Source of the DNA: an uncultured Cardiobacteriales bacterium
Lineage (GTDB): Bacteria; Pseudomonadota; Gammaproteobacteria; CAYWWW01
Direction of reading: 5' to 3'
NCBI GenBank assembly: GCA_964462205.1
Contig: CAYWWW010000006.1
Location: forward strand, 52,717-116,716
DNA length: 64,000 nucleotides
In this document: positions 12,981 through 51,808 of the stretch, in pieces
How the letters are laid out: every line of letters starts with the position of its first letter
Numbering within the stretch: position 1 is the first letter of the stretch
Translations under genes and position numbers: made by a program
The notes under the pieces: model-generated
What the model was told of the DNA's origin: nothing
Database searches by the model: none
What the model saw: only the letters and a program-made list of their open reading frames with translations

Positions 12981-13040
12981 CCGATTTCCTCCTTTGAAAA
13001 TTATAGAAAAAACGTAAGCAACAAACACAAACCATTTCAC

Positions 13041-24990: not shown

Positions 24991-26691
24991 TTAGGGCAGG
25001 GTCGCAGGCGTTTTATCGCTCGGCGACATTACTGGACGCGGTAACCAATTGACAATATTGGAAGCACCGAGAACCGCTGCCGCGCCTTCCAAACTGTTGC
25101 CCGTGCCAGTCACTGACACTGTAGGTACTTTGACAATATTGGGATTGCTTGCCGCCGCTGCCAGAATTTCTTTCAACATCGCCAATTGCAACGCGCTTTC
25201 CTGACCTAAAACCTCTACTTGCGCTTTTTGGCCAGCAGCAATTTCAATCAAGCGCAATTTTTCACCTTCGCCTTGTAGTTGTAGTTGCAGTTTATTTTGC
25301 TCGGCAATTTTGACGTTAAACTCCGCCGCCACCAAACGCGGTTGCTCGACGGCTTCCGCGCGCGCCCGCTCGACTTCGGCACGTTTTAACTGCGCCTGTC
25401 GCTCCTGTTCATAGGTCGCCCCCAGTTGGGTCGCCAACTGTTCGCGCTGACGGGTGACTAATAATTCCGGCGGAATCACCGGATCGCCAAAGCGCACTTC
25501 TTTCAAAGTCACGCCAGCTTTGGCTAATTCGCCGCTTAAGGCCGCTTCTACGGCTTTTTCTAACTCTTGGCGTTTATTGATTAAATCCAGAATCTTGCGA
25601 TCTTCGGCACCAGTGACATTCCGTACCACACTGCGCAGTGCCGGCGTGGCAATGCGTTGTTCCACTTCGGCAATGGAACCTACCAAAGCCACCATTTTTG
25701 CCGCATCTTCCGGCGTCACCTGAATTAAAATCCGCACTTCAATCGGCACCCGCCAACCTTCAATGGTAGCGATCACTGCCCGATCCACAGCTTCTGACGG
25801 CACTAAATCGGTGTAAGGCTTGGAAACTTGACTGATATTACCCTCGCTATCCACGGTTAAATTGATCTGCCGTGACTCAAAACCACCTTTATAGAGCAAG
25901 GCTTGAATGGTCGTTGGCACTATCGTCGGGTTATAGGCAATGGTATTGAGATAATAGCGTCCCGGCATCAAGGGTTCGGATTGGACACCGGCGCAGCCTT
26001 TGGCCACCAAAGGCAAGGCCACGGCACCAACCAAGGGCTTACAATCGTCACGCTCATTAACGTTGGATTTGATCACTGCCACCGTGCCGCGTGGTACATC
26101 TAAGGCATCCACCAGCGTGACATCAAAAAGATATTGATTTAACCGATATTTCCCTGGCGATAAATACGCTAGTTGTGGGCCACGCTGCCCATCTTGCTTA
26201 AGAAATTCAATGGCATTGATCAGGGTATCCAGCGCATTTTGTGCAAATACTCTACTGACAAACTCATTATCTGTTAATGGGTTGCCATCTTTTGCCACCA
26301 AAATCCCCGCTTTGCCTTCGGGGACTTCAATCAGCGGCAACTGTTCAACGCTAAATAAAAGATTAACAAAGGGAATCACATAAAAACCTGGGCCTAAAAT
26401 TTCCGCTTGCGGTCCTTGTTCACCGGGGAGCGCGATCACCCGACCGTCCGGCAGGGGTTTGCCTAAATAAATACGTTTTAAGTGACCAACACGATCTTGA
26501 TCAATCACCACCATACTTAGCATTAAAAAAGTTACTACCGCCAAGCTACTGAATAATAACAAACCAAAAGAACGATAAAAGGTATCAGGTATATCAACTT
26601 GATATTGATCCGAGAGCGTTTTGCGGCCAAAGCCCGTTGCTGTCGCAATCGCCAAAGCGATAAAAACCACCGTTGCCAGTAAAAGTAACAT
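24991..26691 (-). CDS. Flotillin/SPFH (band 7) family membrane protein
   Basis: N-terminal membrane helix and SPFH domain. A Glu/Arg/Ala-rich coiled coil (ERQAQLKRAEVERARAEAVEQ) is typical of YqiK/flotillin. Start chosen at MLLLLATVVF. Confidence 0.75.
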   Translation of the reverse strand: MLLLLATVVFIALAIATATGFGRKTLSDQYQVDIPDTFYRSFGLLLFSSLAVVTFLMLSMVVIDQDRVGHLKRIYLGKPLPDGRVIALPGEQGPQAEILGPGFYVIPFVNLLFSVEQLPLIEVPEGKAGILVAKDGNPLTDNEFVSRVFAQNALDTLINAIEFLKQDGQRGPQLAYLSPGKYRLNQYLFDVTLVDALDVPRGTVAVIKSNVNERDDCKPLVGAVALPLVAKGCAGVQSEPLMPGRYYLNTIAYNPTIVPTTIQALLYKGGFESRQINLTVDSEGNISQVSKPYTDLVPSEAVDRAVIATIEGWRVPIEVRILIQVTPEDAAKMVALVGSIAEVEQRIATPALRSVVRNVTGAEDRKILDLINKRQELEKAVEAALSGELAKAGVTLKEVRFGDPVIPPELLVTRQREQLATQLGATYEQERQAQLKRAEVERARAEAVEQPRLVAAEFNVKIAEQNKLQLQLQGEGEKLRLIEIAAGQKAQVEVLGQESALQLAMLKEILAAAASNPNIVKVPTVSVTGTGNSLEGAAAVLGASNIVNWLPRPVMSPSDKTPATLP

Positions 26692-26757
26692 TCTCACTCC
26701 CTTAAGTTTTGAAAAACGCCCAAAAAAAACGCCAGATAACATCTGGCGTCGGTAATA

Positions 26758-28851
<2,094 letters not shown>

Positions 28852-28999
28852 ATTTTTCCTTTTCTTTCAATAAACAAACTACAGATAAATCAACTACAAA
28901 ACTATCAAGGTGAAGCATTTTGATGGCATAAAACGGCATAATTTTTTTAATTACTATATCTTAACTAAAGCAAAACAAAATCAAAATTTTAATTAAAAA

Positions 29000-29995
29000 T
29001 TAACCTTGATAATAGGCAACAGCCGTCTCTACTTCGTTTTTCGACCCTAAAATCACTGGAATGCGTTGATGCAATTCCGTCGGTTGCACTTCAAGCATGG
29101 ACAATTCGCCGGTGTGACACGCGCCACCGGCTTGTTCGGTGATCAAGGCCATCGGGTTGGCTTCATACATCAAGCGCAGACGGCCAGGTTTGCCGGGGTC
29201 ACGGCTGTCAGCAGGATAACTAAAAATACCGCCACGGTTCAAAATGCGATGCACTTCCGCCACCATCGAGGCCACCCAACGCATATTAAAGTCCTTACCG
29301 CGTTTGCCGGTTTTACCCGCCAAACAATCAGCGATATAGGCTTGCATCGGCGGCTGCCAAAAACGCTGATTGGACATATTGATAGCAAATTCTTTGGTAT
29401 CCATAGGCACTTGGACATGTGGATGCGTTAAAACAAATTCGCCAATGCCACGATCCAAAGTAAAGCCATAAGTGCCACGGCCAAAAGTGATGACCAACAT
29501 CGTCGAAGGACCGTAAAGTGCATAACCGGCAGCAATTTGATTTTTGCCAGGTTGCAGATAATCTTTAAGCGTCGGCGTGCCTTGGCCAGCAAAGGGCAAT
29601 ACGGAAAAAATCGTGCCGACGGAAATATTGACATCAATATTGGAAGAACCATCCAAAGGGTCAAATAAAATCAAAAACTTACCGCTGTCATTGCCAGGCA
29701 ACGGGTCATCCATTTCTTCCGAGGCTAAACCGGCAAAAAGTCCGCTCTCGGTTAATACTTTGACCATGACATCATTGGAGATGACATCGAGTTTTTTCTG
29801 CACTTCGCCTTGGACATTTTCGGATTCATTGCTACCTAAAATGCCGGCCAAATCGCCTTTACCAATGGCATCGGCAATATACTTACACGCCAAAGCAACA
29901 TTGCTAAAAATGTCTGGCAATAATGGTGATAGGGAAGCATCGGCGGCCACCGCTTGCTGCATACATAAAGTTAAGGTTTGTCCTTTTTTCATCAT
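29000..29995 (-). CDS. fbp: Fructose-1,6-bisphosphatase class 1
   Basis: [11 protein letters not shown]...[18 protein letters not shown]... and the [10 protein letters not shown] metal-binding motif. Confidence 0.9.
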
Positions 29996-30082
29996 CCTGA
30001 CCCTAAATTACTAAAAAAAACGCCCAAAAACCTGTCAAACCACGCGATCATGAGTCCATAACGGGCGCTGAGCGCAGGCATC

Positions 30083-30958
30083 TTACTTGGCTTTTGCTGG
30101 AAACGAAATATAGACCGCCTGGCCTTTGCGGATTTGCGGTTGGCTTTTTTGCCAAGCGATAGCGTAGATGATTTCATAGCTCAAAGGCAGCCGACCGTCG
30201 GCCAAGGCCAATTCCCGATAGGCAGCTTCCACCTTCGCCAAGGCAGCTTTAGTCAATAAACCACGGCGAGTTCTCGGGGTATAAATCGCGCCAACCTGCT
30301 GTAAATCTTTCAAAATATCCAAGACAGAGGTATAGGTTAAGCAAATACGTTCGGTATCTACCACCGGTGCCTCAAAACCTTCGGCCAATAACCAATCGCC
30401 AAGATTTTCCAAGGGAATTAACCCAGGCGGCGGCGGACGGACTTCAATGACCGACCAGGCTTGCCGTAACTCCTGCAAAGTCAATGGGCTTAAGGTCGCA
30501 AACAACAGCAAACCTTCCGGCGCTACGACCCGCTGCCATTCGCGCAAGGTCTGGCGCACCTCAAGACTCCACTGCAAGGCCAAATTGGAAAACAACAGCG
30601 ATAGGCTCTGTGAAGGCAGAGGCATAAGGTTCATATCGGCAAGCACCGGCCAGACACGCGGCCGACGCCAAAAAGCCTTTGACCACGGCGGCGGCTTGGC
30701 GATTTTCTTGAGCAGTGGCAAGGAAAAATCCACAGCGACGCCCAAGGCATCGGGATACAGTTGCTGTAGGCTTGGCAAGGCGGCACCAGTGGCGCAACCA
30801 ACATCGGCAAAGCGGCGCACCGGCACCCGAATGCCGGGCAGACGCGACAGCAACTCGTCGCGGCTGTGTTGTTGTACTGCCGCCGCTTGCGCATAAAAAG
30901 GCGCGGCTTTGCTAAAAGCGCGTTGAATCGCTTCAAGTTTCCAGGTTGTTTCTGTCAT
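30083..30958 (-). CDS. bioC: Malonyl-ACP O-methyltransferase
   Basis: SAM methyltransferase motif I VADVGCATG. Located directly downstream of bioH. Confidence 0.65.
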   Translation of the reverse strand: MTETTWKLEAIQRAFSKAAPFYAQAAAVQQHSRDELLSRLPGIRVPVRRFADVGCATGAALPSLQQLYPDALGVAVDFSLPLLKKIAKPPPWSKAFWRRPRVWPVLADMNLMPLPSQSLSLLFSNLALQWSLEVRQTLREWQRVVAPEGLLLFATLSPLTLQELRQAWSVIEVRPPPPGLIPLENLGDWLLAEGFEAPVVDTERICLTYTSVLDILKDLQQVGAIYTPRTRRGLLTKAALAKVEAAYRELALADGRLPLSYEIIYAIAWQKSQPQIRKGQAVYISFPAKAK

Positions 30959-31094
30959 TTCTTTTGTTTCTTTCCTTATCTTTTCAGTGCTTCTCTAAAA
31001 AATTTTGCTTTTCCATAAAAAATCAAAAAAAGCCTTCGGCTGACCCGGTTGCAGTGGTTTTTGTATGACCTTTTCTTTAAGTCCTTAAAAAACT

Positions 31095-31928
31095 TTATGC
31101 AAAGGAAATAGGCTTAGACGACCCACCGAGAACCACTTCCTGTCCCGCCAACCAATTTGTCAAGGCAGAGGCATAGGCCAAGGGGAGACCATGACTGGCG
31201 GCAGGCCAAACACTGATTTCGCGATACCCCGCTGCTGGCGACAAGGACAAAGCGGAAAGCGCGGTTGCAACATTAACCGGCACCAGGTGATCTTGACCCG
31301 CAAACAGCGCCGAAATAGCCTGCGGCAAGCACTGCCACAGCGGACGGGCATCCTGTTCTAGCCAGAAAAAACCCTGTGCTAAAGCCGTCGCTTGCGGCAA
31401 ACCCTCGGCCTGTAACCGCATCTGCCACTGTTTAACCAAGGCGCGGGCATTGGGCTGCTGCCAAAATTGCCAATGCAAGAATTGCTGCCAGGTTTTTTCG
31501 GTATCGTCTAAAAGTTGTTTTTGAAAAAGTTGATAATTTTTCAAAGGCATCCCCGGCCAATTTTCCTGAGCTAAAAAGCAAGGATTGGTTGCCAAAAGTG
31601 TCACCGCTGCAACCTTTTCGGGATAGGCTTGCGCCAAGGCCAAGGCCAGTCGCCCCCCCAAAGACCAACCGATAAGCCAAGAAGGTGCTGCCGGGAGTTG
31701 TTCGGCCAAAAACGGCAACCAGTCTAAGGCGGAAGCCACCGACGGTGCCGCGGCATGACCGGGGAGGGATAAACAGCGGTCGGTACTTCGCATGACTTCT
31801 GTAAAAACAAGGGGATTCATGGTAAAGCCAGGTAAAAATACCCGTTGCATGGTCGGTAAGCCTTCAAAAAATGCCTCAGTATAGGTCATTTCCGCGCTTG
31901 CTTCGACCAAGGTTTTTTTAATAAGCAC
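31095..31928 (-). CDS. bioH: Pimeloyl-ACP methyl ester esterase (alpha/beta hydrolase)
   Basis: Nucleophile elbow GWSLGG. BioH-like length and its position next to bioC. Confidence 0.65.
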   Translation of the reverse strand: MLIKKTLVEASAEMTYTEAFFEGLPTMQRVFLPGFTMNPLVFTEVMRSTDRCLSLPGHAAAPSVASALDWLPFLAEQLPAAPSWLIGWSLGGRLALALAQAYPEKVAAVTLLATNPCFLAQENWPGMPLKNYQLFQKQLLDDTEKTWQQFLHWQFWQQPNARALVKQWQMRLQAEGLPQATALAQGFFWLEQDARPLWQCLPQAISALFAGQDHLVPVNVATALSALSLSPAAGYREISVWPAASHGLPLAYASALTNWLAGQEVVLGGSSKPISFA

Positions 31929-32154
31929 AAATGTAAAGAAAAAATTTCTGGCTAAAATTAACAGTAAAAATTAACCAGTTGATTATAAAAATTTTTTCAA
32001 GAAAGAGGCATAAGATTTTGTGCCACAATAAAAAGCGCTAGACTACCGATAGGCAAGCGTTTTGCGCTATGCTGGCGCGGTTTTTTATCAGTTTTATTCA
32101 CTTTTTATTTGTTTTATCGGTAAAGCAAAAATCAACACATCATAGAGAGAAAAA

Positions 32155-32760
32155 ATGGAATGGTTGACCATTGCTGCCTTATGGTTGGCAGCATATCTTT
32201 TGGGTTCAATTAACAGTTCGATTTTATTAGCAAAAGCCTTTGGTTTACCTGATCCGCGTTTGGTCGGTTCCGGGAATCCAGGTGCCACCAATATCTTGCG
32301 TAGTGGTAAAAAATGGTTGGCTTTATTCACCTTACTTGGCGATTTAAGCAAAGGTTTTATTCCGGTATTTTTAGCGACTTGGTTATTTCAGGAACAATTA
32401 TGGTTAGCCGGAGTCACCGCCGTATTTGCTTTTCTTGGTCATCTTTATCCGCTCTACTTTCGTTTTCAAGGCGGTAAAGGAGTAGCAACCGGTTTGGGTG
32501 TTTTTCTGGGACTTTCACCTTGGTTGGGGTTAAGCACTTTGGCCGTTTGGTTAAGTGTGGCGATGATAACTCGTTATTCGTCTTTGTCGGCTTTAACAAC
32601 GGCTTTGGCTGCGCCTTTATTGACTTATATATTTTTCAAAGACTTATGGTTGACCATTATCGTCATCATGCTTTCTTTATTAAGCATTTTCCGGCATCGC
32701 AGTAATATCGCACGTTTACTCAAAGGCGAAGAGCAAAAAATCGGCGCTAAGAAAGTTTAA
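32155..32760 (+). CDS. plsY: Glycerol-3-phosphate acyltransferase PlsY
   Basis: LGSINSSILLAK...GSGNPGATNILRSGKK is the PlsY signature. Confidence 0.9.
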   Translation: MEWLTIAALWLAAYLLGSINSSILLAKAFGLPDPRLVGSGNPGATNILRSGKKWLALFTLLGDLSKGFIPVFLATWLFQEQLWLAGVTAVFAFLGHLYPLYFRFQGGKGVATGLGVFLGLSPWLGLSTLAVWLSVAMITRYSSLSALTTALAAPLLTYIFFKDLWLTIIVIMLSLLSIFRHRSNIARLLKGEEQKIGAKKV

Positions 32761-32797: not shown

Positions 32798-33820
32798 ATG
32801 ATCAATCACATTTTTACCCTGATAAGTTTGTTTTTCCTAATCACAGGTTATCTAAATTCTCTGGAAAAAACCCTTCATAGCGATAGCACTGACAACAAGA
32901 CCTATATCAGACAAGTTGCAGCAACACCAGGTTTCAAGGTCACCAGTGCCTCAGACGTACGTCTGCGGGCGGCGGCGAGCACCAGCGCTAACGTCTTGGC
33001 AACATTGCCTTTGGGGGAAGTATTGACGGTTATTGGCAGTCAACCTGGGATCATTGCTGGTCAAAAAAACTTTTGGTATCAAGTGCGTCGTGCTAATGGT
33101 CAGAGCGGTTTTATCTTTGGTAGTCTCTTAACCGAATATGATCCAGACAATCCTTTAGACAGTGTTCTTACCATTACCGAAAATCGTCTTGCCAAAACCG
33201 ACCTTATCCTCAATCAAGCATTTGATTTATACCAATTTTTAGAAAAAACTGAACAAGCAGCGCATCCTTTAGATCAAGGCTTGATCGCTGAATTGCGCTT
33301 AAAAAGTTTAAGCCGTTATGCAGAAATTTTATCAGCAGCAAATAATTATGCGCCGACGGAAAACTTGCCAAAAGAAATCAAAGAAAGCATTTATTATCAT
33401 GAACTTGCTGGCGGTTATTTTGTTAAACCGGAAACCTATTGGCAAGCTGCCAAACAATATGCCAATAGCCAAAGTGGCGATAATTTAGCTTTTGCTGCTG
33501 CCACCGCCATTTATCCAGGTGAATGTGAAGGCGAGGCTTTTTGTGTACTTATGCGTTTTGCCAATACCGGTGGTTTATACTTAGAAAATTATCCGCGTGG
33601 TCAGCATGTTGATGCTGTATTGCAGAGCTTAAAAGAAGGTTTGCCAAATGAAGCCGCCATCAAAGAAACCATTACTTATTTCGTCAATAACAATGAATAC
33701 GCCAATTTGACCTTACTTGAAAATGCTATCAAAACCTTAAAACGCCAGGTCGAACGCAGCCGCAGCCTTGAAAAAGCCGATGCATTACAAGAGCTTTTAC
33801 TATTGGAAAAGTCTTTTTAA
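32798..33820 (+). CDS. Hypothetical exported protein with an SH3b-like domain
   Basis: N-terminal hydrophobic anchor. FWYQVRRANGQSGFIFGSLL resembles a bacterial SH3_3 domain. Confidence 0.45.
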   Translation: MINHIFTLISLFFLITGYLNSLEKTLHSDSTDNKTYIRQVAATPGFKVTSASDVRLRAAASTSANVLATLPLGEVLTVIGSQPGIIAGQKNFWYQVRRANGQSGFIFGSLLTEYDPDNPLDSVLTITENRLAKTDLILNQAFDLYQFLEKTEQAAHPLDQGLIAELRLKSLSRYAEILSAANNYAPTENLPKEIKESIYYHELAGGYFVKPETYWQAAKQYANSQSGDNLAFAAATAIYPGECEGEAFCVLMRFANTGGLYLENYPRGQHVDAVLQSLKEGLPNEAAIKETITYFVNNNEYANLTLLENAIKTLKRQVERSRSLEKADALQELLLLEKSF

Positions 33821-33834
33821 TCATTTATAGATAG

Positions 33835-34800
33835 ATGAAATATACTTTATTGTTCATTGCATTGCTTAGCGCTTGTACCATTTTGGCCGAGGAAAAAAAG
33901 CCTCCTTATTTTTATCTGGGTGAGATAACCCTTGGCTATAAATATCAGTTTTTACAGCCAGATGATATTGCTGAAGCCTATGTTAAAACTATCGGCTTAA
34001 ATCTTTTAAGCCTTGAATTAAATCTGCAAAAAGCCAGTTGGAGTAACAAATGGTCGAGGCTATTTTTACCCACATTAACTTATGAGTTCACCCCAAACAA
34101 TAGTGCTGAACAAAAGCAATTGATTGCATTAAATCAAGGTAGTAGCAATGCCAGCAGCCGCTTTGCCGCCGATCTTAACGCTGATATTGGTGAATTTTTT
34201 AATCGGCCAGATCGTCATTTTCTTGTTGGTTATTATGATCGGCAAGCCTTTTTATACAATGTACAAACTACTGATTTTTATTGGTTTTTCTCCAATAACC
34301 GCGCCACACTTTTATTGCCTGGTGATGCAATCAGCGTGGCTACGGTATTTGAACAAAGTCGCCTGGGTTATCGTCAACAACGCAAGCGTTGGCAAGCAGA
34401 GTTCGGTGCTTTTCAATTACGCTATCAAAAACCTTTACTCTCCCCCCTATTAACCAGCACCGATGCTTTATTTGAGTCCACTTTAAAATCCCAGGGTCTT
34501 TATTTTGGCGCAGGTTATTTTTATCGTGGAAAAAGCGGCGTTTTCTTAAATTATAACAAGGGTCTTCAATCTGATATTGAGTTGGTTGAAGGTTTTAGTC
34601 AGGCTTATAATCCTGCCAAAGATCGCACTGAGGATATTAACTTCTCTGCTTGGCAAATAGATATGGTATTGACCAGCACAGATTTTGGCTTGAAACGACT
34701 ACCCTTGCAGCTTATGACCAGTGTTATTTATCGGGATTTTGAAGGCTACAATGATGATTTAATTTACAGTATCAATATTATCTATCAAGTGAAGTTTTAA
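33835..34800 (+). CDS. Putative outer-membrane lipoprotein / beta-barrel protein
   Basis: Signal peptide with LSAC lipobox. The C-terminus ...INIIYQVKF ends in an aromatic residue, the usual beta-barrel outer-membrane protein signature. Confidence 0.45.
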   Translation: MKYTLLFIALLSACTILAEEKKPPYFYLGEITLGYKYQFLQPDDIAEAYVKTIGLNLLSLELNLQKASWSNKWSRLFLPTLTYEFTPNNSAEQKQLIALNQGSSNASSRFAADLNADIGEFFNRPDRHFLVGYYDRQAFLYNVQTTDFYWFFSNNRATLLLPGDAISVATVFEQSRLGYRQQRKRWQAEFGAFQLRYQKPLLSPLLTSTDALFESTLKSQGLYFGAGYFYRGKSGVFLNYNKGLQSDIELVEGFSQAYNPAKDRTEDINFSAWQIDMVLTSTDFGLKRLPLQLMTSVIYRDFEGYNDDLIYSINIIYQVKF

Positions 34801-34835
34801 CATTTTATCCTTTAATTTCCCATCATTTATCAATT

Positions 34836-37061
34836 ATGAAAAAGATCGGCTTTTTATTTTTGCTTAGTTTTGTTTATCTTTTGACTGGCTGTAGCCAAGA
34901 AAACGGTAGTCCTTACACTCCCTTAACCCCAGATACAATGCCAACGGTGAATCTTGGTGCCGATATTGATGGCGGTGGCGGGCTTTATGTACCAAACTTC
35001 TTAAGTTTTGATGAAAACAGTGCTGATCCTGTCGTATATTTTGGACAACAAGAATTTCGTTTTCTCAATAGTCAACATCCACCCTTGTATTTTTACCTTG
35101 ATCTCAACAATGACGAAATCAATGACTTAGAAATTGAAACTCAAAAGATTACCGAACAAATTATCCAAGAAGATATTCGTGGCATCCGCACCCTCCAAGA
35201 AACCAGCTATACAGATATCAATAAGGACAGTGAGAATTTCAACCTTGCTCAAGAAATCATTCAAAGCACTTACGCACAAGATCGCTTGGGCAATGTGCAT
35301 TTTTTAGCCTTTTCACGGCAAGGTATTAGCGATAGTGAACCAACCGTAATAACAAATCCAATACCTTACCCGGTTTATCCTGCCAAAGTGCAAGTTGGCG
35401 AAACATGGTTGACTGCTTTTGCGCCAAACACTTCCTTAGTGCCGGAGAGTGGTTGGCAAGTAACGCTATTAGATGATGATGCTACCGCGCCTATCAGCGG
35501 CGAAGAAAATACTATTCTTCTTCTTTTTCAGTATATTGATGGCGGATTTTATCTTTATCTTAAGCCAGGAATTGGTGTAGTAGAGCAATTGGCACTATGG
35601 ACTGATGAAAATGGAAAAGTGAAACCAATTGTAGGACTTGCCAAGCAAATTCAAAAAGATATTGGCCTTGGCAGCGATTTCATCACTGGCGGCCACAATA
35701 ACCCGCTGGTTGGTGTTTTACAATTACCCATGTTAGTACAGAGTTATCAGGATAAACTTTATTTTAATTATCAATATAGTGAATCCATCTATTTATGCCG
35801 ACTGTTCTTTCCAGCATCAGAATATGGCCGTTGTTATAGCGAAGATGGCACCAATAGCGATTATTTTAGTTTTAGCTTTCTCTTTGATCCACAAAGCAAA
35901 GCATTAACCCTAGCCAATCAAGCCTTGGCATTACCAGCAGAAGATAATTATTTTCAACCAATTTTTGAGATACAACTCAATGGCCAGCAATTTTTTGTCA
36001 ATGCCGAAGCAGGCGACATCCAAGCGCGTTCTTATTATCCCCTAGAACAACCCTATGGCTTTGCTATGCTTAACTTTTATGGCAATCTTTATAATGCCGA
36101 GAGCAAGCAAACTTTTCCTTTTAACACGATTATTGCGAGTCCATTTTTCAACCAACAACAACTGGGTAGTGTTATTTTAGATGCTGATATTGATCGCATT
36201 TTACCTAGACAAAACAAAGACCAAACTATCCGCCTTCATTGGTTAAACCCAACAGGCGACCGCACAGAACAGCTCTTTTGGGGAAACAGCCCAGAAAACA
36301 TCAATAACAGCTTTGAAAATATACAATATTTTTGCTTTAGCGATAGTGGAGCGACAAGCAACTGCGAAGGAACCAACAATCGGGCAGCAACCTTTACCAG
36401 CACCATGACTGGCACCATATATCTGCAATTACGCACCGATAATCCTTTCTTTAATAGTCTTATTTATCAACTATCTATTGAAGAAAATACGCTTAAACAA
36501 CTACCCATTGCGCGTATTACTTCTGTTGAAAACATTATTGAGCCATTAACCTTAACTTTGCCAGAAAGTAACACCATCACTGCTGCCTTTAGTGCTATCC
36601 ACTCCCGTGCGCTAGCGAGAAGCATTGTGGATTATCATTGGACTATCAATGGCGAAGTATTGCCGGAAACTTTCTGGACGATTCGTCAGACTTTTCAAGA
36701 ACCTGGCGACTATACTGTTGGTTTAACCGTCACCGACAGTCTTGGTCAAACCGCAACCACCACCTATCAAGTCCTAGTGAGAAAACAGGGCGAAATTATT
36801 TTTCGTAATATCTCACTCGCACAACAAGTGATTGAATTAGAAATTTATACGCTAAGCGACACCGGCGCACAAACTTTCCTCAAGTCCATTTCACAACGCC
36901 TCGCACATACCGAAGAATGGTTAGTGGAATTGCCTGTTGGCCAGGTCTATGCCTTGCGCTATGCCATACAAGGCACGGCTCCCGATGCTGAAAAAAAGCT
37001 AGAAGAAAAAACCGTCGCCATCTTTGCAGGTTTTACTGAAGTCATCACCATCACACCATAA
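34836..37061 (+). CDS. Large lipoprotein with a PKD domain
   Basis: LTGC lipobox. 741 aa. DYTVGLTVTDSLGQTATTTYQVLV is a PKD-domain signature near the C-terminus. Confidence 0.55.
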   Translation: MKKIGFLFLLSFVYLLTGCSQENGSPYTPLTPDTMPTVNLGADIDGGGGLYVPNFLSFDENSADPVVYFGQQEFRFLNSQHPPLYFYLDLNNDEINDLEIETQKITEQIIQEDIRGIRTLQETSYTDINKDSENFNLAQEIIQSTYAQDRLGNVHFLAFSRQGISDSEPTVITNPIPYPVYPAKVQVGETWLTAFAPNTSLVPESGWQVTLLDDDATAPISGEENTILLLFQYIDGGFYLYLKPGIGVVEQLALWTDENGKVKPIVGLAKQIQKDIGLGSDFITGGHNNPLVGVLQLPMLVQSYQDKLYFNYQYSESIYLCRLFFPASEYGRCYSEDGTNSDYFSFSFLFDPQSKALTLANQALALPAEDNYFQPIFEIQLNGQQFFVNAEAGDIQARSYYPLEQPYGFAMLNFYGNLYNAESKQTFPFNTIIASPFFNQQQLGSVILDADIDRILPRQNKDQTIRLHWLNPTGDRTEQLFWGNSPENINNSFENIQYFCFSDSGATSNCEGTNNRAATFTSTMTGTIYLQLRTDNPFFNSLIYQLSIEENTLKQLPIARITSVENIIEPLTLTLPESNTITAAFSAIHSRALARSIVDYHWTINGEVLPETFWTIRQTFQEPGDYTVGLTVTDSLGQTATTTYQVLVRKQGEIIFRNISLAQQVIELEIYTLSDTGAQTFLKSISQRLAHTEEWLVELPVGQVYALRYAIQGTAPDAEKKLEEKTVAIFAGFTEVITITP

Positions 37062-37090
37062 CTATTTTTTTATAAACTTTTTAGGAAATT

Positions 37091-37513
37091 ATGCATTGTT
37101 TTTATCATCCCGATGCCGCTGCGGTGGCGACTTGTAAATCTTGTCAGCGTGGACTTTGCTTCGCTTGCGCAGTATCTCTACCCAACGCCGAACAACCGTT
37201 GGGCATGGCTTGCAAAGACCGTTGTGAAAACGAAGTCAATGAAGTCAACGCCTTGATCCAAAGCAACAAAAAATTAACCAAGGCGGCTCCTGGACAATTC
37301 AAAGCGAATGCCAATGTTTACTACAATCTCGCTTTTGGCAGTATTGCCTTAGCAAGTGTTTTCATTGGTTATGGCAGTTATGAACTAATTGTTTTTGATA
37401 GCTTTGGTTTAAGCACTTTTTTAATCGCTGGCGGCTTAATTTTCCTTTGGTCAGGCTTTGGCTATTGGCAAACTGCACAACGCTTAAAAAAAGCCAATCA
37501 ATCGCATGAATAA
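37091..37513 (+). CDS. B-box-type zinc-finger membrane protein
   Basis: CFYHPDAAAVATCKSCQRGLCFAC cysteine/histidine cluster at the N-terminus, followed by two or three predicted transmembrane helices. Confidence 0.5.
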   Translation: MHCFYHPDAAAVATCKSCQRGLCFACAVSLPNAEQPLGMACKDRCENEVNEVNALIQSNKKLTKAAPGQFKANANVYYNLAFGSIALASVFIGYGSYELIVFDSFGLSTFLIAGGLIFLWSGFGYWQTAQRLKKANQSHE

Positions 37514-37552
37514 ATCAAACGCTTAATTTATATCTTTATAAATCAAAATTTT

Positions 37553-38692
37553 ATGTCAGAACTACCGGCGCTCGAAAAAATTTTACCCTTGTTGCCGCCC
37601 GAAGAAACGCCTTGGTTGCGTGCCTTGGTAGCGCGTGATTATGGTGAGACTTTAGCGATTTTTAATCCACAAGCCTTTGTTTTACAAACACCTAAAGCGG
37701 CTATTCCCTGGCCAGAACAAGCGCCGGACAAACCCTGGCCAGAAATTTGCTTGTACTTACGCGCCAGTCAGCCGTTGAGCACAGAAGAGCTTGCTTGGTT
37801 AGAAAAATTTAAGCGTTTTTTTGCCACATTAACGCTACATCCCGTTTACTATCCGGGGGAAAAGCTATCCCTTTGGATGCATTGGCAATTAACGATATAT
37901 CTACGCAAAAAAATTTTTCATCACTTGGCGATGCCTTGCCAAATTAAGCCATTGATTGCTTTAGAAAATGCGCAAAGCCTATTGACCACAGCACCAGCAC
38001 AACGCGCCTGGCAACAACAGCAACAGCGCGCTTTAATTTTTTATTGTCAACAATACCGAAAAACAACGGAAAATCAGCAAACTGCCACAAGTCAACTACA
38101 AGCTATCGAACAGGCGAGCCAATTGGCCTTTGATCAGTTATCCAGCCGCTTAATACAGTTACAAAAAAATCAAAGCCCTAAGGAAATACTTTTCACTTGG
38201 CAACAAGATTTAAGCTATCAATCCTTAGCACAAGCCTTAGAAACAATAGCTATTTCTCTTGATTCTGCTTCGATCATAGCTTTAGCCGAACAACATTTAC
38301 AATGGCAAAAACAACCACGCTTTCGCTTGGAACGCTATAAAAAAAGCCGCTTCTCAGCAAAAAATCCTTGGGGAATCCTGCAAGAAATACTAAAACAAGG
38401 CGAGCGATTATTTCAGTCTTTATTATTCAGCACCTTAATTGGCATCATTGCTTGGGCTTTTGGCATTGACCACGGCATCTTGTTGACCTTTATTTTATTA
38501 AGCGCCTTCCTTTTAGGTTGGCGATTTCAGCTTAAAAAAACCATTTCTTATACTTTGATAGGCCGCACAACCTTTTTCAAAGCCTTGAGCGAATCCTGGC
38601 AAGCCTCAACAGCTTTTCAAAAAATTCAAACCCTTGTCCTTTGGGAACAATCATGTCCGCCGATATCCACCACGCGCAACGCCAAGCATTAG
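37553..38692 (+). CDS. Hypothetical Gln-rich protein with a C-terminal membrane anchor
   Basis: 379 aa. Gln-rich helical middle (QQQQQRALIFYCQQYRK). C-terminal hydrophobic helices LLFSTLIGIIAWAFGIDHGILLTFILLSAFLLGW. The 3' end overlaps the start of the downstream GTPase gene. Confidence 0.5.
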   Translation: MSELPALEKILPLLPPEETPWLRALVARDYGETLAIFNPQAFVLQTPKAAIPWPEQAPDKPWPEICLYLRASQPLSTEELAWLEKFKRFFATLTLHPVYYPGEKLSLWMHWQLTIYLRKKIFHHLAMPCQIKPLIALENAQSLLTTAPAQRAWQQQQQRALIFYCQQYRKTTENQQTATSQLQAIEQASQLAFDQLSSRLIQLQKNQSPKEILFTWQQDLSYQSLAQALETIAISLDSASIIALAEQHLQWQKQPRFRLERYKKSRFSAKNPWGILQEILKQGERLFQSLLFSTLIGIIAWAFGIDHGILLTFILLSAFLLGWRFQLKKTISYTLIGRTTFFKALSESWQASTAFQKIQTLVLWEQSCPPISTTRNAKH

Positions 38693-41520
38693 CCTTTGCT
38701 TGTGAGCGTTTATCCTTGTTTGTCAAAACATTAAATTTGCCTGTACAGCATCTGGATGAACAAACCAAGGTGATTCGTGAAGATCGTTTCAGAATTTTAG
38801 TGCTTGGGGAATTTAAGCGTGGAAAATCCACTTTAATCAATGCCTTGCTTCAGGAAGATTTACTTCCACATCAAGCCACCCCGGCCACGCCTTTACCCAT
38901 TCGCTTAGGTTATGGGGAAAAAAGAACTTTATTCTTAAAAAATCAACAGGGTGAACTTGAGGAACAGGCTTTTTCCAGCCTCAGCCAATTGCGCTTAAAA
39001 AGTGATGATCTTGGTCAAGATCGCTTTGGTCTATGGGAGGAAGCCTTGGTCACATTGCCCAATGCTTTTCTTTTACAAGGCATTGAAATTATTGACTCTC
39101 CGGGTTTACATGAGGATGCTTTACGCACCGCGCGGAGTGAAGCGGCTTTATTAAAGGCTGATGCCATCATCATGGTCTTGGATGCCACGCAGTTGCTTTC
39201 CAGTGCTGAACAAGCATTTTTAGAGAAATTACAAGCCTTTGGTAACGAAAATCTCTTTTTTGTCATCAATCGCTATGATGTCTTTTTGCAAAGCATTCCA
39301 ATGCCGCAACAGGCTGAACAACAAGCACAATTAACCGCACGCTTAAGCCATGCTTGGCAACGGCTCTGGCCAAAACAACAACCGCGTATTTTTTATTTAA
39401 GCGCTCTACAAGCCTTAAAAGCTGCACAACGTGGCCAAGAAGATAGCGATTTTGCTATTTTTTTGCTTCACCTTAAAAACTTTTTACAACAAGATCGTAT
39501 CCGCCAACGCAAACAACGCTTACTGGGGTTTTTTCAAGAAGAACAACGAACTTTACAACGTTATTGGCAAAAGCTCGATCAATTAACCCAGTTAAATCTT
39601 CACGAGGCGCTCCAACAAGAAGAAATGTTGCGCCGACAGATCAAACGCTTAGAAGAACAGCAGCAAAGTCTTACCATTTGGTTAAACAAACAACAAATAG
39701 AATGGCGGAAATGGTTAGGACAAGAGAAAAATTATCTTGAGAATCAATGGTTAAAACTTATTCAACAAACTATAGAAACAGCGCTCAGCGAAAAAACCTT
39801 CACTGCGAAAGAATTAAGCGAAAAACCTTTATTTGAACTCTTGCCGCATGGCGAACAAGTCTTAAAAACCGCTGCCGAAACTTGGCAACAAGAACGCTTA
39901 CAACCGCAACTTGAACTCACCCGTCAAGATTTGAAAAATTATTTAGCTAAGGAAATAGCACTTTATAAACAAACATTTACTTGGGATGACGAAGTAGAAA
40001 ATCAAGACTTACCCAGGCAGACAGCGCCCGAAAATTATGCACTGTCTCTCAATGTTGATAGCTTGGCGGCACGGCATTTTCTCTATGGTTTACCGCTGGT
40101 AAGTGGCGCGGGTATTTGGCTTATTGGCTTAAGCAGTTTTAGTTTACCGTTGGCTTTGGTGTTGGCTTTATTTGGTTTTGTGGTAGAACGGCAATTGCGC
40201 TGGCAAAAAATTCAAAAAGAATTAAGTAGTTATCTTAAGCCGGTGCTGGCAAACATCACTGAAAGTTTTATTCATGATCATGAAATTTATGTTTTAGAAA
40301 AATTAAAGCGCTGGCAACTGCCTTTTTCTGAGCTTTTACAAGAAATTCACAACACTACGGCGCGATTACGACAATTATTAAAGACAACCCAAGCGCAACG
40401 TCAGAATAATCAACAGCAAAATCAAGCGGCATTCAAGAAAAAACAACGTGAGGAAAGCGAAGCAAAAGAATTATTTCAAGCGATTTATGATCTTTTAAAC
40501 CAATGGCAACAGGTCAATGTCAGCAAAAAAACCTTATTTAACGGCGAGATTATCGAAGCCTTAGGCCAGCAACTCCCCGGTCTATTGCCGCAATTGCCAG
40601 CAAATTTATATGTTCGCGCTCAAGTGCTTATGCAGCAAATTGCCGATTGGCAAAATGAAAAAGCGCCGGCATTGTGGTGCTGTGGCAGCGCCGGCAGTAG
40701 TAAAAGTAGTATTGTGCAGTTTTTATTGGGTCAAGCCTTTTTGCCGCCGCCGGCTTTGGCAAATTTTGCCGGTCTTCTGCATTTTTCTCCAGGGGAAACT
40801 TGGCAGCTTTATGTTTTTTATCAAGAAAAGTTAAGCCATCAACAAACCATCTCTCCAGATCATGCCTTAGCGGTTTTGTTAGCAGAATTTGCTAAAAATC
40901 ATGATAGCGCTTGTTATCGTTATCAATTTACCGTGCCAGGTCTTACCTATCAACTCTATGATTGTCCAGCTTTTTTTAATGCACAGCATCCGCTCTGGCC
41001 GTATTTTCAAAAGCACAGTTGGCGGGCGCGAATTATCTATAGTTTGGATAGATTGGAACTCGGGCAGTTTTCAGAATTTTATCAACAAGTTTATAAAGAA
41101 AACAATTTATCAGCTTGGTTTTTCTGGTCAAGCACTGCCTTGTCTGCCAATCATCAAGAAACCTTGAAGAAGCACTTGGCTGATCGTTTTCATCCCCAGT
41201 GCATTCAGATGCTGTCGCCAAATTTAGCGCTTTTGAAACAAATACTTAATGCTAAAAGTTATCTTCCTTGGCAAGCGCTGTGGTCAGAAAATACTTTAAT
41301 GCAGTTTTTACTGCCCGGTTGGCAAGCAAAGCATCTTGATTTTTTTTGGCGGTTTTGGTTGCAATGGCGACTGCAAAAGGTCGCCTGTGCAGAGGTTTTA
41401 GAGGCTTGGCGGGGCAAGGTAGCGGATTTTCAACAGGAAGATCAACAGCAGTTGGAAAATAGGAGTTTGCTATTGGCCGCAAATTTGGCACCGTTATTGG
41501 ATAGCGGCCTTGGTCAGTGA
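38653..41520 (+). CDS. Dynamin-like GTPase (bacterial dynamin-like protein) with a membrane paddle and an extra C-terminal domain
   Basis: G1 LVLGEFKRGKSTLINALL, G3 IIDSPGLHE, G4 NRYD. Long coiled-coil stalk. Hydrophobic hairpin LPLVSGAGIWLIGLSSFSLPLALVLALFGFVV. The ORF track begins at a TTG at 38641; the first ATG is at 38653. Confidence 0.75.
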   Translation: MSADIHHAQRQALAFACERLSLFVKTLNLPVQHLDEQTKVIREDRFRILVLGEFKRGKSTLINALLQEDLLPHQATPATPLPIRLGYGEKRTLFLKNQQGELEEQAFSSLSQLRLKSDDLGQDRFGLWEEALVTLPNAFLLQGIEIIDSPGLHEDALRTARSEAALLKADAIIMVLDATQLLSSAEQAFLEKLQAFGNENLFFVINRYDVFLQSIPMPQQAEQQAQLTARLSHAWQRLWPKQQPRIFYLSALQALKAAQRGQEDSDFAIFLLHLKNFLQQDRIRQRKQRLLGFFQEEQRTLQRYWQKLDQLTQLNLHEALQQEEMLRRQIKRLEEQQQSLTIWLNKQQIEWRKWLGQEKNYLENQWLKLIQQTIETALSEKTFTAKELSEKPLFELLPHGEQVLKTAAETWQQERLQPQLELTRQDLKNYLAKEIALYKQTFTWDDEVENQDLPRQTAPENYALSLNVDSLAARHFLYGLPLVSGAGIWLIGLSSFSLPLALVLALFGFVVERQLRWQKIQKELSSYLKPVLANITESFIHDHEIYVLEKLKRWQLPFSELLQEIHNTTARLRQLLKTTQAQRQNNQQQNQAAFKKKQREESEAKELFQAIYDLLNQWQQVNVSKKTLFNGEIIEALGQQLPGLLPQLPANLYVRAQVLMQQIADWQNEKAPALWCCGSAGSSKSSIVQFLLGQAFLPPPALANFAGLLHFSPGETWQLYVFYQEKLSHQQTISPDHALAVLLAEFAKNHDSACYRYQFTVPGLTYQLYDCPAFFNAQHPLWPYFQKHSWRARIIYSLDRLELGQFSEFYQQVYKENNLSAWFFWSSTALSANHQETLKKHLADRFHPQCIQMLSPNLALLKQILNAKSYLPWQALWSENTLMQFLLPGWQAKHLDFFWRFWLQWRLQKVACAEVLEAWRGKVADFQQEDQQQLENRSLLLAANLAPLLDSGLGQ

Positions 41521-41843
41521 GGTTTTTTTGTCGTCATAAGTAGCGTCGCCTAGAGGTACAGGATTTAGGCTAAGGCTTCACAGCCAAGCGCAGCTTTTGG
41601 CATTTTTTTAATTATTTAACAAGTAGTTGACTTGGCAGCGGTCTGTTCGCCTTGGCCGCGTAAAGTTGAGGTTTTGCTTTGATTTACGCTATGTGCAATC
41701 TTTGGCTTTGCCTGCTGTGGCTGGTCAAGCGGACTGTGCAAAAACCCTGCCGAACCCCAAAAAACTGCCTAGCAACTTGCTGTATCCTAAAGTTTATGCT
41801 AGGTTCCAACGTCTTTTTTTCAGCGTAGGATCAAAGCTCTGGC

Positions 41844-49613: not shown

Positions 49614-49736
49614 ATGCCGCTTCTTTATCTCTTATTGCTTACCTTAGCCGTGTCGAATTTGGTCGGCTGTGGTCAAAAAGGTGATCTGTACTTACCGAAA
49701 AGCACTACGTCCACTTTTATGCACAAGGCTCTATGA
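49614..49736 (+). CDS. lptM: Small LptM (YifL)-like lipoprotein, 40 aa, absent from the ORF track
   Basis: MPLLYLLLLTLAVSNLVGCGQKGDLYLPKSTTSTFMHKAL has a signal peptide, LVGC lipobox and the conserved GQKGDLYLP. Its stop overlaps the lysA-dapF start. The E. coli locus is yifL-dapF-yigA. Confidence 0.6.
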   Translation: MPLLYLLLLTLAVSNLVGCGQKGDLYLPKSTTSTFMHKAL

Positions 49737-51808
49737 CTTTTCATTATAAAAATCATCAACTTTTCTGTGAAGCACTGGCTTTAGAAACTTTAGCCACCGC
49801 GCATGGTACGCCCTTGTATGTCTATAGCGCCTCAGAAATTATTCAAAACTATCAAGCCTTTGATCAAGCATTAACTGCTGTACCGCATCATCTCTGCTAT
49901 GCTGTCAAAGCCAATGCCAACCTCTCGATTTTGGCGTTATTGGCCGAACAAGGGAGTTTTTTCGATGTGGTATCTATTGGCGAATTACAAAAAGTGGAAA
50001 CCGCTGGCGGCAAAGCCGCACAATGTATTTTTTCTGGCGTTGGCAAAGGCCTAGAGGAAATTGCCTATGCCTTAGAACAAGGCATCTTGACTTTAAACAT
50101 TGAATCGCTAGACGAATGGCAAGCTATTGAACAAGTTGCTAAAACCCACGGCGTAACCGCACCTGTGGCCATCCGCGTCAATCCTGATATTGATGCCAAA
50201 ACCCACCCTTATATTTCAACTGGCCTGAAAGAAAATAAATTTGGGATTGGGATGCCGGAGGCCGAAAAACTCTATCATCAGCTCAACGACAGCCAACACG
50301 CCGACATTCATGGTCTGGCGGCGCATATCGGTTCGCAAATGCTCGACCCGGCACCCTACCAAGCCGCTGCCCGCCGCCTACTCAGCCTCGCCGAGCGTCT
50401 TCAAGACAGAGGCATAAAACTCAAGCATCTGGATGTCGGTGGCGGCTTTGGCATTCGCTATCAGCAAGAACAACCACCCACGGCAACGGCTTGGTTTGCA
50501 CCACTATTAGCCGATTTTGCCGCTGCTGGTTTAACGATCTTGATTGAACCTGGCCGTGCGCTGGTTGGCAATGCCGGCGCACTGCTCACCCAGGTACGCT
50601 ATCGCAAGGAAAATCAAGGCAAACATTTTGCCATTGTGGATGCCGCGATGACGGAATTGCTGCGTCCCAGTCTCTATCAAGCACACCATGAAATTTTGCC
50701 GCTCAAGGCCGCCTTAGCCGAAAGTTATCCGCCGCTGGATATTGTTGGCCCGGTCTGCGAAAGCGGCGATTTTTTAGGCAAAAATCGGCAAATTCCCGCT
50801 GAAGTTGGCGATTTTTTAGCGATCTTAAGCACTGGTGCCTATGGCGCGGTCATGGCCTCGCAATACAATGCCCGACCGCTGGCTGCGGAAGTTTTAGTCT
50901 ATAAAAATCAAGCAGCAGTGATACGGCAACGGCAACCCTTGGCCGATTTATGGCGCTACGACACCTTGGCCAAACCTTGGACCAGCGCCGAAAAGCCGTT
51001 GCGTTTTCGCAAAATGCAAGCCTTAGGCAATGATTTTATTGTTATTGATCACCGTGAGCCGCGAGACTTCAAAACAGCAGACTGGCAAAAACTTGCCGAC
51101 CGGCATTTCGGTGTTGGTGCCGATCAGATTTTGCTGGTGGAAAAAAGCGCTGTCGCGGATTTTCGCTATCGCATCATCAATGCCGATGGCTCGGAAGTCG
51201 GCCAATGCGGCAACGGTGCGCGCTGTTTTATGGAATTTTTACGGCTGGAAGGTATCAGTCAGGCCGATACCGTGCGTGTTGAAACCTTAAGCGGCGCGAT
51301 GCTTCTGCATCGGGATGCCAAAGGAAATACTCGTGTGGACATGGGCTTAGCGCGTTTTGCGCCCAAAGCAATTCCCTTGGCGGTCGCCGAAGAACAAGCG
51401 GTTTATACCTTAAGCCTTGACGGTCAAGCACTTGACTTTCATGCGCTTTCCCTGGGGAATCCCCATGCGGTGTTCAAAGTCGAAGACGTAGATTTTGCGC
51501 CCGTCCAACAGCTCGGTGCGCGGCTTTCCGTACATCCGCTGTTTCCCGAACGTGCCAACATCGGTTTTATGCAGATCATTGACCACAACACTTTGAAATT
51601 GCGCGTATTTGAACGCGGTGCCGGGGAAACTTTAGCCTGTGGCAGTGGTGCCGCCGCCGCCGCGGTGATCGCCATACGCTTTTTTGGCGCGCACAGTCCC
51701 GTTCAGGTACAGCTACCTGGCGGCCGCTTAGAAATTTTCTGGGATGGCGGCGCGGTGATCTTGTGCGGGCCGGCCAGCAGCGTCTTTTCAGGAGAAATCG
51801 TTTTATGA
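49733..51808 (+). CDS. Apparent bifunctional diaminopimelate decarboxylase / diaminopimelate epimerase fusion (LysA-DapF)
   Basis: Residues 1-~410 align with LysA. Residues ~422-691 align with full-length DapF (LRFRKMQALGNDFIVID versus E. coli MQFSKMHGLGNDFMVVD; GQCGNGARCF active site). No stop codon between the two domains. Confidence 0.75.
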   Translation: MTFHYKNHQLFCEALALETLATAHGTPLYVYSASEIIQNYQAFDQALTAVPHHLCYAVKANANLSILALLAEQGSFFDVVSIGELQKVETAGGKAAQCIFSGVGKGLEEIAYALEQGILTLNIESLDEWQAIEQVAKTHGVTAPVAIRVNPDIDAKTHPYISTGLKENKFGIGMPEAEKLYHQLNDSQHADIHGLAAHIGSQMLDPAPYQAAARRLLSLAERLQDRGIKLKHLDVGGGFGIRYQQEQPPTATAWFAPLLADFAAAGLTILIEPGRALVGNAGALLTQVRYRKENQGKHFAIVDAAMTELLRPSLYQAHHEILPLKAALAESYPPLDIVGPVCESGDFLGKNRQIPAEVGDFLAILSTGAYGAVMASQYNARPLAAEVLVYKNQAAVIRQRQPLADLWRYDTLAKPWTSAEKPLRFRKMQALGNDFIVIDHREPRDFKTADWQKLADRHFGVGADQILLVEKSAVADFRYRIINADGSEVGQCGNGARCFMEFLRLEGISQADTVRVETLSGAMLLHRDAKGNTRVDMGLARFAPKAIPLAVAEEQAVYTLSLDGQALDFHALSLGNPHAVFKVEDVDFAPVQQLGARLSVHPLFPERANIGFMQIIDHNTLKLRVFERGAGETLACGSGAAAAAVIAIRFFGAHSPVQVQLPGGRLEIFWDGGAVILCGPASSVFSGEIVL

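Follow-up and report, generated by a model that had tools for sequence, protein, structure and literature searches.

A dynamin-like GTPase gene and its overlapping partner gene, predicted to encode a membrane hairpin protein, in an uncultured Cardiobacteriales bacterium

Which genes form the functional unit around a large dynamin-like GTPase gene of an uncultured Cardiobacteriales bacterium? The gene lies in a stretch of 64,000 nucleotides (nt) of contig CAYWWW010000006.1 (assembly GCA_964462205.1, positions 52,717 to 116,716), which was analysed as a whole and is hereafter called the window. On the plus strand, it is preceded by a gene for a protein of 379 amino acids (aa), termed here the partner, and by a gene for a 140-aa protein with a cysteine cluster, termed here the zinc-finger protein. 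A preliminary description, made from the sequence alone, had proposed that the three genes form one membrane module. The three tightly spaced or overlapping open reading frames (ORFs) were found where that description had placed them (37091-37513, 37553-38692, and 38641-41520, the last encoding 959 aa from a TTG start), and the run of genes that they close does lie between plsY and thrS. The three genes do not, however, occur together in related contigs: the zinc-finger gene is gone from two contigs that have the other two genes, and these two are gone from contigs that have the zinc-finger gene. The reading that we favor, to which a rough probability of 0.6 is assigned, is that the unit consists of two genes at the tail of a chromosomal operon, in which the genes for an inner-membrane hairpin protein and for a dynamin-like protein (DLP) of the BDLP/mitofusin class are coupled in translation.

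Conservation of the gene pair in related contigs

The partner gene was found directly upstream of the DLP gene, with the same overlap of 40 nt, in the window contig (L005) and in two related contigs, L001 (67-68% identity) and L004 (85%); the arrangement in contig L006 is identical to that in L005. The two genes thus occur together, and overlap, in every lineage that possesses either of them, three in number, and in all three they are located downstream of plsY. The gene order in the window is plsY, SH3b protein, 321-aa protein, 741-aa PKD lipoprotein, zinc-finger protein, partner, and DLP, corresponding to seven genes on one strand separated by gaps of 14 to 39 nt, the gap between the zinc-finger gene and the partner gene being 39 nt. 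The other contigs differ from this order.

In L004, what remains between plsY and the pair is a 192-nt piece from within the SH3b gene, the final bases of the 741-aa gene, and the initial ~40 nt of the zinc-finger gene, which are fused to the last ~90 nt of that same gene. The segment L004:677-1075 maps to window positions 33295-33486, 37056-37134, and 37423 onward, indicating deletions of ~0.5, 3.6, and 0.3 kb. These three deletions have removed four upstream genes, and the partner and DLP genes that follow are intact. Since the sequences overlap by only ~5 to 19 nt at the junctions, a chimera generated during k-mer assembly is unlikely. The opposite situation was encountered in L002 and L003, which come from two samples, are 94% identical to each other, and belong to a lineage different from that of L004. 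Both contain plsY, the SH3b, 321-aa, and 741-aa genes, and an intact zinc-finger gene, the product of which shares 89% identity with the window protein and which evolves under purifying selection (ratio of nonsynonymous to synonymous substitution rates, dN/dS, of 0.16). The homology ends 27 nt into the partner gene (window 37553-37579), leaving a dead stub (L002:4884-4915 and L003:580-611) in which the ATG has become ACT and a stop codon follows after ~10 codons; beyond this stub, there is a WD40-repeat gene on the opposite strand. The pair has been lost or moved in this lineage. Finally, L001, which originates from a pink/white/grey microbial mat at 44 °C in Yellowstone (PMC9600594), has the order plsY, a longer SH3b protein, a 378-aa protein, and the DLP. 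It has no zinc-finger gene and no room for one, and the SH3 gene is the only envelope gene present. The reciprocal losses in L004 and in L002/L003, together with the absence of the zinc-finger gene from L001, therefore identify two genes, and not three, as the functional unit. They show that gains and losses of the zinc-finger and envelope genes did not depend on the pair. A tight functional pairing of the partner with the DLP is supported by their adjacency and 40-nt overlap in all three lineages.

All genes of the run were found to be under purifying selection, with dN/dS values of 0.08 to 0.20 in comparisons with the related contigs (0.18 to 0.19 for the partner gene and 0.18 for the C-terminal third of the DLP gene), and they are therefore real coding genes rather than chance ORFs. 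Translation of the DLP more likely starts at the ATG at 38653 (955 aa) than at the TTG at 38641, because the identical database protein P0001 has been called from this ATG. In addition, the N terminus (MSAD...) is preserved among relatives, and a GGGAA motif is located ~8 nt 5' of the ATG. The 40-nt overlap makes translational coupling of the two genes probable, as judged from the sequence. A programmed frameshift that would fuse the partner to the DLP is not supported by inspection of the overlap, which revealed no canonical slippery heptamer.

Anatomy of the GTPase and its partner

Profile searches and structure models fully support the assignment of the large gene product to the dynamin-like GTPases of the BDLP/mitofusin class. 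The Pfam model PF00350 (Dynamin_N) matched residues 52 to 211 of the 959-aa form (92.6 bits; cut-off, 27; E=3.7e-26). G1, the switch-I residue Thr79 (G2), G3, and G4 are all intact, and they coincide with invariant (G52, G57, T79, D148, and G151) or nearly invariant (K58, S59, T60, and N206) columns of an alignment of 94 BDLP sequences, so that the G domain looks catalytically intact. The best match in a phmmer search of the PDB was the Nostoc punctiforme BDLP (2j68, E=1.2e-22), and mitofusins, Fzo1, IniA, the Campylobacter DLP, and SynDLP were also matched. An AlphaFold2 (AF2) model based on the 94-sequence alignment has block means of the predicted local distance difference test (pLDDT) that are mostly above 85 over residues 11 to 445 and 521 to 620. 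The confident parts are the N-terminal helices, the G domain, and two long helical bundles, and pLDDT exceeds 90 over most of residues 1 to 445 and 513 to 660, including most of the neck/trunk helices (residues 265 to 443 and 513 to 647). When this model was compared with the PDB using Foldseek, BDLP was at the top (2j69, E=3.9e-19, 713 aligned columns), followed by IniA, SynDLP, Cj-DLP1/2, and mitofusins; the alignments to BDLP and IniA cover 640 to 713 columns with E values of 1e-11 to 1e-19. EngA/Der, Era, YlqF, and other ribosome-associated TRAFAC GTPases, which were considered as alternative identities, scored only 12 to 34 bits against cut-offs of 124 to 515 and were rejected. Two hydrophobic segments (residues 476 to 511) lie between the trunk helices, at the position of the BDLP paddle. 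The AF2 confidence is low there, so that the paddle is assigned from the sequence only; its identity to P0002, a homologue discussed below, is 88%, compared with 68% for the whole protein. The dynamin-like nature of the protein, its intact G1, G3, and G4 motifs, and its paddle hairpin had all been recognized in the preliminary description, and these points are borne out. Its statement that bacterial DLPs are rare is not: of the 8000 candidates scored, 530 proteins matched the window DLP at E≤0.001, and a scan of species-representative genomes yielded at least 568 relatives, the closest among the matches listed from that scan sharing 41% identity. Bacterial DLPs are a widespread and known kind of membrane-remodelling protein.

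The C-terminal region distinguishes the DLP from its relatives. Among 5.8 billion proteins, P0002 (68% identity) is the only other full-length homologue, whereas more than 500 other matches span only the N-terminal ~600 residues. When 1.84 billion representative proteins were searched exhaustively with a profile of the C-terminal domain, only the domain itself was returned, and scans of viral and metagenomic sequences for it were empty. From its sequence, the region is read as an orphan, lineage-specific domain with a relic P-loop, and it lacks both a stalk and a paddle. A Walker-A-like motif, of which L001 retains a canonical version, precedes 'IVQFLLGQAFLP', a counterpart of the 'LINALLxxxLLP' stretch past the true P-loop, and ~90 residues further on a DCPA motif occupies the position that DSPG has in the true G domain. 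The domain may be derived from a dynamin G domain. The only Pfam match was a P-loop model below threshold (NPHP3_N), and the best, weak matches of a hidden Markov model (HMM) of the domain were the P-loop regions of other BDLPs. An hhalign comparison of the P-loop stretch with the P-loop/switch-I region of BDLPs gave a probability of 66%, and a BDLP profile built without the family of the window DLP aligned the domain in register, although not significantly.

The partner is mostly helical and contains 10.8% glutamine. It comprises an N-terminal region of ~285 residues, Gln-rich helices, a two-helix hydrophobic hairpin, a basic stretch, and a helical tail of ~50 residues, and it has neither a signal peptide nor an N-terminal hydrophobic segment. 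The Gln-rich composition and the 3' overlap with the next gene agree with the preliminary description, whereas the C-terminal membrane anchor that it proposed is probably a hairpin (residues 287 to 327) with both ends in the cytoplasm rather than a plain anchor. In both the partner and the zinc-finger protein, a basic stretch follows the hairpin and an N-terminal hydrophobic segment is lacking, which is consistent with cytoplasmic termini. The hairpin of the partner shares 83% identity with that of its 67% relative, a value above that for the whole protein.

In a word-indexed search of the 5.8 billion proteins, the partner was represented by three clusters, namely, itself, the 85% relative, and the 67% relative. 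No significant match was obtained in Pfam, NCBIfam, PADLOC, PHROGs, or the PDB, a metagenome scan was empty, and BDLP profiles did not detect a dynamin domain in it. To place the pair among its relatives, the 80 nearest BDLP loci were taken from the at least 568 relatives in species-representative genomes; no partner-like ORF was found around these 80 genes by a permissive HMM, even at E≤10 in this small set of ORFs. Only a few lineages, uncultured and probably gammaproteobacterial, are known to have the family.

Table 1. Features of the locus, in window coordinates
Feature	Position	Strand	Basis or remark
Variable envelope gene block	32798..37061	+	SH3b, 321-aa, and PKD lipoprotein genes
SH3b protein	32798-33820	+	Pfam SH3_3
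321-aa secreted protein ending in Phe	33835-34800	+	signal-peptide-like N terminus
741-aa PKD lipoprotein	34836-37061	+	one PKD domain (Pfam); LPAM-like lipobox, LLTGC
140-aa Cys-cluster (B-box-like) protein, two transmembrane segments	37091..37513	+	neighbour, not an obligate part of the pair
379-aa orphan partner	37553..38692	+	probably cytoplasmic N-terminal region, Gln-rich helices, hairpin, ~50-aa tail
Predicted two-helix membrane hairpin of the partner, aa 287-327	38411-38533	+	sequence; broken by GIDHG
Overlap of partner 3' end and DLP 5' end, 40 nt	38653..38692	+	same in L001 and L004
Dynamin-like GTPase, BDLP/mitofusin class, 955 aa	38653..41520	+	Pfam, PDB phmmer, AF2, Foldseek
G domain, aa ~45-262	38785..39438	+	motifs read from the sequence and the 94-sequence BDLP alignment
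G1 GEFKRGKST	38806-38832	+	read from the sequence
G3 DSPG	39094-39105	+	read from the sequence
G4 NRYD	39268-39279	+	read from the sequence
Putative hydrophobic paddle/membrane hairpin, aa 470-512	40060..40188	+	Kyte-Doolittle peaks 1.57-2.26
Orphan C-terminal domain, aa 641-955 (~315 aa)	40573..41517	+	no homologue but itself; dN/dS 0.18
Putative relic Walker A, GSAGSSKS	40684-40707	+	canonical GSAGSGKT in L001
DCPA motif	40960-40971	+	read from the sequence
Terminator-like hairpin and T-run	41583..41611	+	~60 nt past the DLP stop; consensus scan and sequence, pattern match only

Proposed mechanism, alternatives, and neighboring genes

The mechanism that we propose for the two-gene unit draws on the literature on BDLP, Cj-DLP1/2, IniA, and DynA (PMC6104087, PMC6715688, and PMC6162298). 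By analogy to these proteins, the DLP would use its paddle to attach to the inner membrane from the cytoplasmic side. Binding of GTP would then cause the dimerization of the G domains and the opening of neck and trunk, which would tether or deform the membrane for fusion, fission, or repair. The partner would serve as a membrane-resident heterotypic partner or adaptor that replaces the tandem second DLP of most relatives, and the C-terminal pseudo-NTPase domain may be a regulatory or oligomerization module that controls assembly. GTP hydrolysis, nucleotide-dependent dimerization, and lipid remodelling by the window DLP are accordingly expectations based on the characterized members of the superfamily.

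Several points weigh against this reading. The AF2 model of the partner, for which three sequences were available, is uninformative (pLDDT 45), and pLDDT values are below 50 over most of residues 669 to 916 of the DLP, so that there is a confident structure for neither the partner nor the C-terminal domain. The lineages with the pair are only three and are closely related, and the adjacency of the two genes could partly reflect shared ancestry; shared ancestry as the whole cause is argued against by the conservation of the overlap and by the survival of the pair when the flanking genes were deleted. The genomic context cannot separate roles in repair, fusion, division, vesicle formation, or defence. 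In the window genome, the pair is possibly co-transcribed with the envelope genes, because the seven closely spaced genes on the same strand are not interrupted by a convincing terminator, as judged from a consensus scan and inspection of the region between plsY and the DLP gene. Co-transcription is not required, because of the reciprocal losses described above.

Of the other explanations considered, a weakly supported and unlikely one is that the locus is a decayed tandem array of DLPs in which a single GTPase has remained active. On this view, the partner would be a reduced pseudo-DLP in which a hairpin and what is left of the G-domain beta4-alpha3 element survive, and an inactivated G domain captured from a onetime neighbor would make up the C-terminal domain of the DLP. 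Residues 64 to 89 of the partner (ICLYLRASQPLSTEELAWLEKFKRF, window 37742-37819) do resemble residues 171 to 196 of the DLP (IIMVLDATQLLSSAEQAFLEKLQAF, 39163-39240), which form the beta4-alpha3 element that is conserved among dynamin G domains. Shuffling gave p=0.0075 for the similarity in the window pair and p=0.001 in the L001 pair, and the hhalign probability is 1.5%. The C-terminal P-loop region, which is in register with the BDLP P-loop and its 'LLGxxxLP' stretch, also counts in favor of decay. Against it, BDLP profiles built without the window family did not detect the partner, and their match to the C-terminal domain was not significant. Were this explanation true, the locus would encode a heterotypic membrane machine with a single motor that is regulated by two pseudo-GTPase relics, and it would represent an example of bacterial pseudoenzyme control in the dynamin superfamily.

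Somewhat less likely still is a dynamin-type defence against phages of the kind represented by Eleos/LeoABC or B. subtilis DynA, in which the DLP would delay lysis or block the phage at the membrane. Dynamin-like operons and DynA have been reported to protect against phages (Millman et al. 2022, bioRxiv 10.1101/2022.05.11.491447), and the PADLOC models for LeoA (E=1.3e-13) and LeoBC (E=7.7e-12) gave weak matches. Both of these matches fall on the same single DLP, however, whereas Eleos is defined by two consecutive DLP genes. Furthermore, the partner has no match in PADLOC or PHROGs, five neighboring proteins have none in PADLOC, nothing related was found in viral contigs, and the locus is flanked by housekeeping and envelope genes at a syntenic chromosomal site instead of lying in a defence island. 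A phage origin of the genes was also rejected, as none of the three proteins matched PHROGs and the search of viral contigs was empty.

Two further explanations are considered quite improbable, to the same degree. According to the first, the DLP and its accessory protein would act as a GTP sensor of the RdcA/RdcB type and would regulate a membrane enzyme without remodelling membranes. RdcA/RdcB provide a precedent for a DLP that works with a non-DLP accessory and has a C-terminal domain that binds the effector (PMC13463826), and the window DLP likewise has an additional C-terminal domain. On the other hand, the DLP matches RdcA at the G-domain motifs only, the partner does not resemble RdcB (BLASTP E=0.95), RdcB is cytosolic whereas the partner has a predicted membrane hairpin, no effector such as a diguanylate cyclase is encoded next to the pair, and the BDLP-type paddle is typical of remodelling members. 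According to the second, the whole run from plsY to the DLP gene would be one operon for envelope biogenesis or stress, in which the pair supports the envelope and zinc-finger proteins. The run of seven genes on one strand with short gaps, the presence of a terminator-like hairpin only after the DLP gene, the location of the pair downstream of plsY in all three lineages, and the retention of the SH3b gene beside the pair in L001 would fit such an operon. Against it count L004, in which the pair dispenses with the envelope genes, and L002/L003, in which the envelope genes dispense with the pair; moreover, the fact that genes are neighbors in such closely related lineages says little about their functional connection. 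The least probable explanation is the initially proposed module, in which the zinc-finger protein, the partner, and the DLP would act as one system: the genes follow one another on the same strand, the first two 39 nt apart and the last two overlapping by 40 nt, and all three proteins have a hydrophobic hairpin, but L004 maintains the pair next to mere fused 5' and 3' fragments of the zinc-finger gene, L002/L003 maintain an intact zinc-finger gene under purifying selection next to what is left of a defunct partner gene, and L001 has the pair without a zinc-finger gene.

The zinc-finger protein is treated here as a putative metal-binding membrane protein that belongs to a variable block of envelope genes. 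Its cysteine/histidine cluster has the pattern C3-x2-H6-x8-C15-x2-C18-x4-C23-x2-C26-x14-C41-x3-C45, of which all eight ligands are kept in the 89%-identical homologue, and two adjoining hydrophobic segments are present at residues 84 to 123. The cluster and the transmembrane helices correspond to what had been described initially; the designation as a B-box protein is less certain, since the score of the Pfam model PF00643 (zf-B_box) was below threshold (15.8 bits; cut-off, 24.1; E=0.015). The ligand spacing fits a B-box, and the C18-x4-C23-x2-C26-x14-C41 portion also resembles an SdhB-type [2Fe-2S] motif, although not significantly (phmmer E=0.22). The cluster (residues 18 to 45, window 37142-37225) could bind Fe-S rather than zinc. 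The envelope block accompanies the zinc-finger gene in L002 and is deleted in L004. Of its products, the 321-aa and 741-aa proteins have no family assignment, and the former ends in ...YQVKF, a signal like that of outer-membrane beta-barrel proteins.

The surroundings of the run are conserved on one side. The upstream region of the window (24991-32760) is syntenic with L001:1-7136 and encodes an EF-G-like GTPase, FBPase, a BioC-like methyltransferase, a BioH-like hydrolase, and PlsY; judging from this synteny, a 583-aa ORF of the window occupies the position of the Band_7 gene of L001. The region downstream of the DLP gene differs, consisting of thrS-infC-rpmI-rplT-pheS in the window and of two minus-strand genes followed by ndk-rlmN-...-hisS in L001. 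These gene orders point to a gammaproteobacterium. In the window, the neighbors of the pair are plsY, bioC/bioH-like genes, envelope protein genes, and thrS-infC-rplT-pheS. The low G+C content of the block was considered as a sign of horizontal transfer and found not to be convincing, plsY having the same G+C content (0.42) as the block. Rfam matches in the window were limited to tRNAs. Two observations were made further away from the locus. A 691-aa ORF (49733-51808) contains the Orn_Arg_deC_N/C domains of a diaminopimelate decarboxylase together with a diaminopimelate epimerase domain and looks like a LysA-DapF fusion, and adjacent phosphoketolase (XFP) and acetate kinase genes on the minus strand (10608-14249) form a phosphoketolase-pathway pair.

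Comparison with known systems

Clear differences emerge when the two-gene unit is compared with characterized DLP systems. A tandem second DLP is encoded at 55 of the 80 nearest BDLP loci, and most of the others have another DLP within 10 kb, whereas the window locus and L001 each contain a single ORF that matches the HMM of the BDLP G domain. The closest match in both sequence and structure is the Nostoc punctiforme BDLP (2j68/2j69/2w6d), with which the window DLP shares the order of its parts, namely, N-terminal helices, G domain, neck/trunk bundles, and a paddle between the trunk helices. The identity in the structural alignment is ~18%, and the window differs by the additional C-terminal domain of ~315 aa and by the orphan, non-DLP partner gene.

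Campylobacter DLP1/DLP2 (5owv/5oxf), Streptomyces DynA/DynB, and mycobacterial IniA/IniC are likewise operon-encoded membrane machines, composed of two proteins and built on GTPases with the BDLP fold (PMC6104087). In contrast to these heterotypic pairs, the second gene of the window pair has no detectable dynamin domain and lies upstream, and the locus has one active-looking G domain. DynA of B. subtilis is, like the window DLP, a membrane-associated BDLP with two P-loop-containing regions in one chain. However, DynA consists of two fused DLP units, and the corresponding NCBIfam model, NF052648, gave only 29.8 bits against a cut-off of 1600; the second region of the window DLP comprises ~315 aa without stalk or paddle, and its motifs (GSAGSSKS and DCPA) appear decayed. 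The weak matches to LeoA and LeoBC reflect the shared dynamin architecture. Eleos/LeoABC depends on two DLP genes and mostly occurs in defence islands, neither of which applies to the window locus.

Another example of a DLP that works with an accessory is E. coli RdcA/RdcB (YjdA/YjcZ), where a DLP is encoded in an overlapping operon together with a non-dynamin protein that is needed for its function (PMC13463826). RdcB is the only non-dynamin accessory that has been described for a bacterial DLP. In the window, the two genes are in the opposite order, the partner has no relation to RdcB and is probably membrane embedded, and the DLP is not an orthologue of RdcA. An RdcB-like identity of the partner was rejected. 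According to the preliminary description, no system was known to couple a DLP to a zinc-finger membrane protein and an anchored partner in this manner. RdcA/RdcB set a precedent for an accessory protein other than a DLP, but one without relation to the partner.

Bacterial DLPs are common, yet few of them have a known role, and the effects of heterotypic partners have been studied only for DLP-DLP pairs and for RdcA/RdcB. The practical value of the locus is limited, and nothing in it points to a new mechanism. It represents a natural variant that combines one active-looking BDLP, an unrelated hairpin partner encoded in an overlapping frame, and what appears to be an orphan P-loop relic. Should the partner indeed stand in for a second DLP, this would show that the heterotypic function can come from a non-dynamin adaptor, and tethering and fusion could be dissected in a simpler system.

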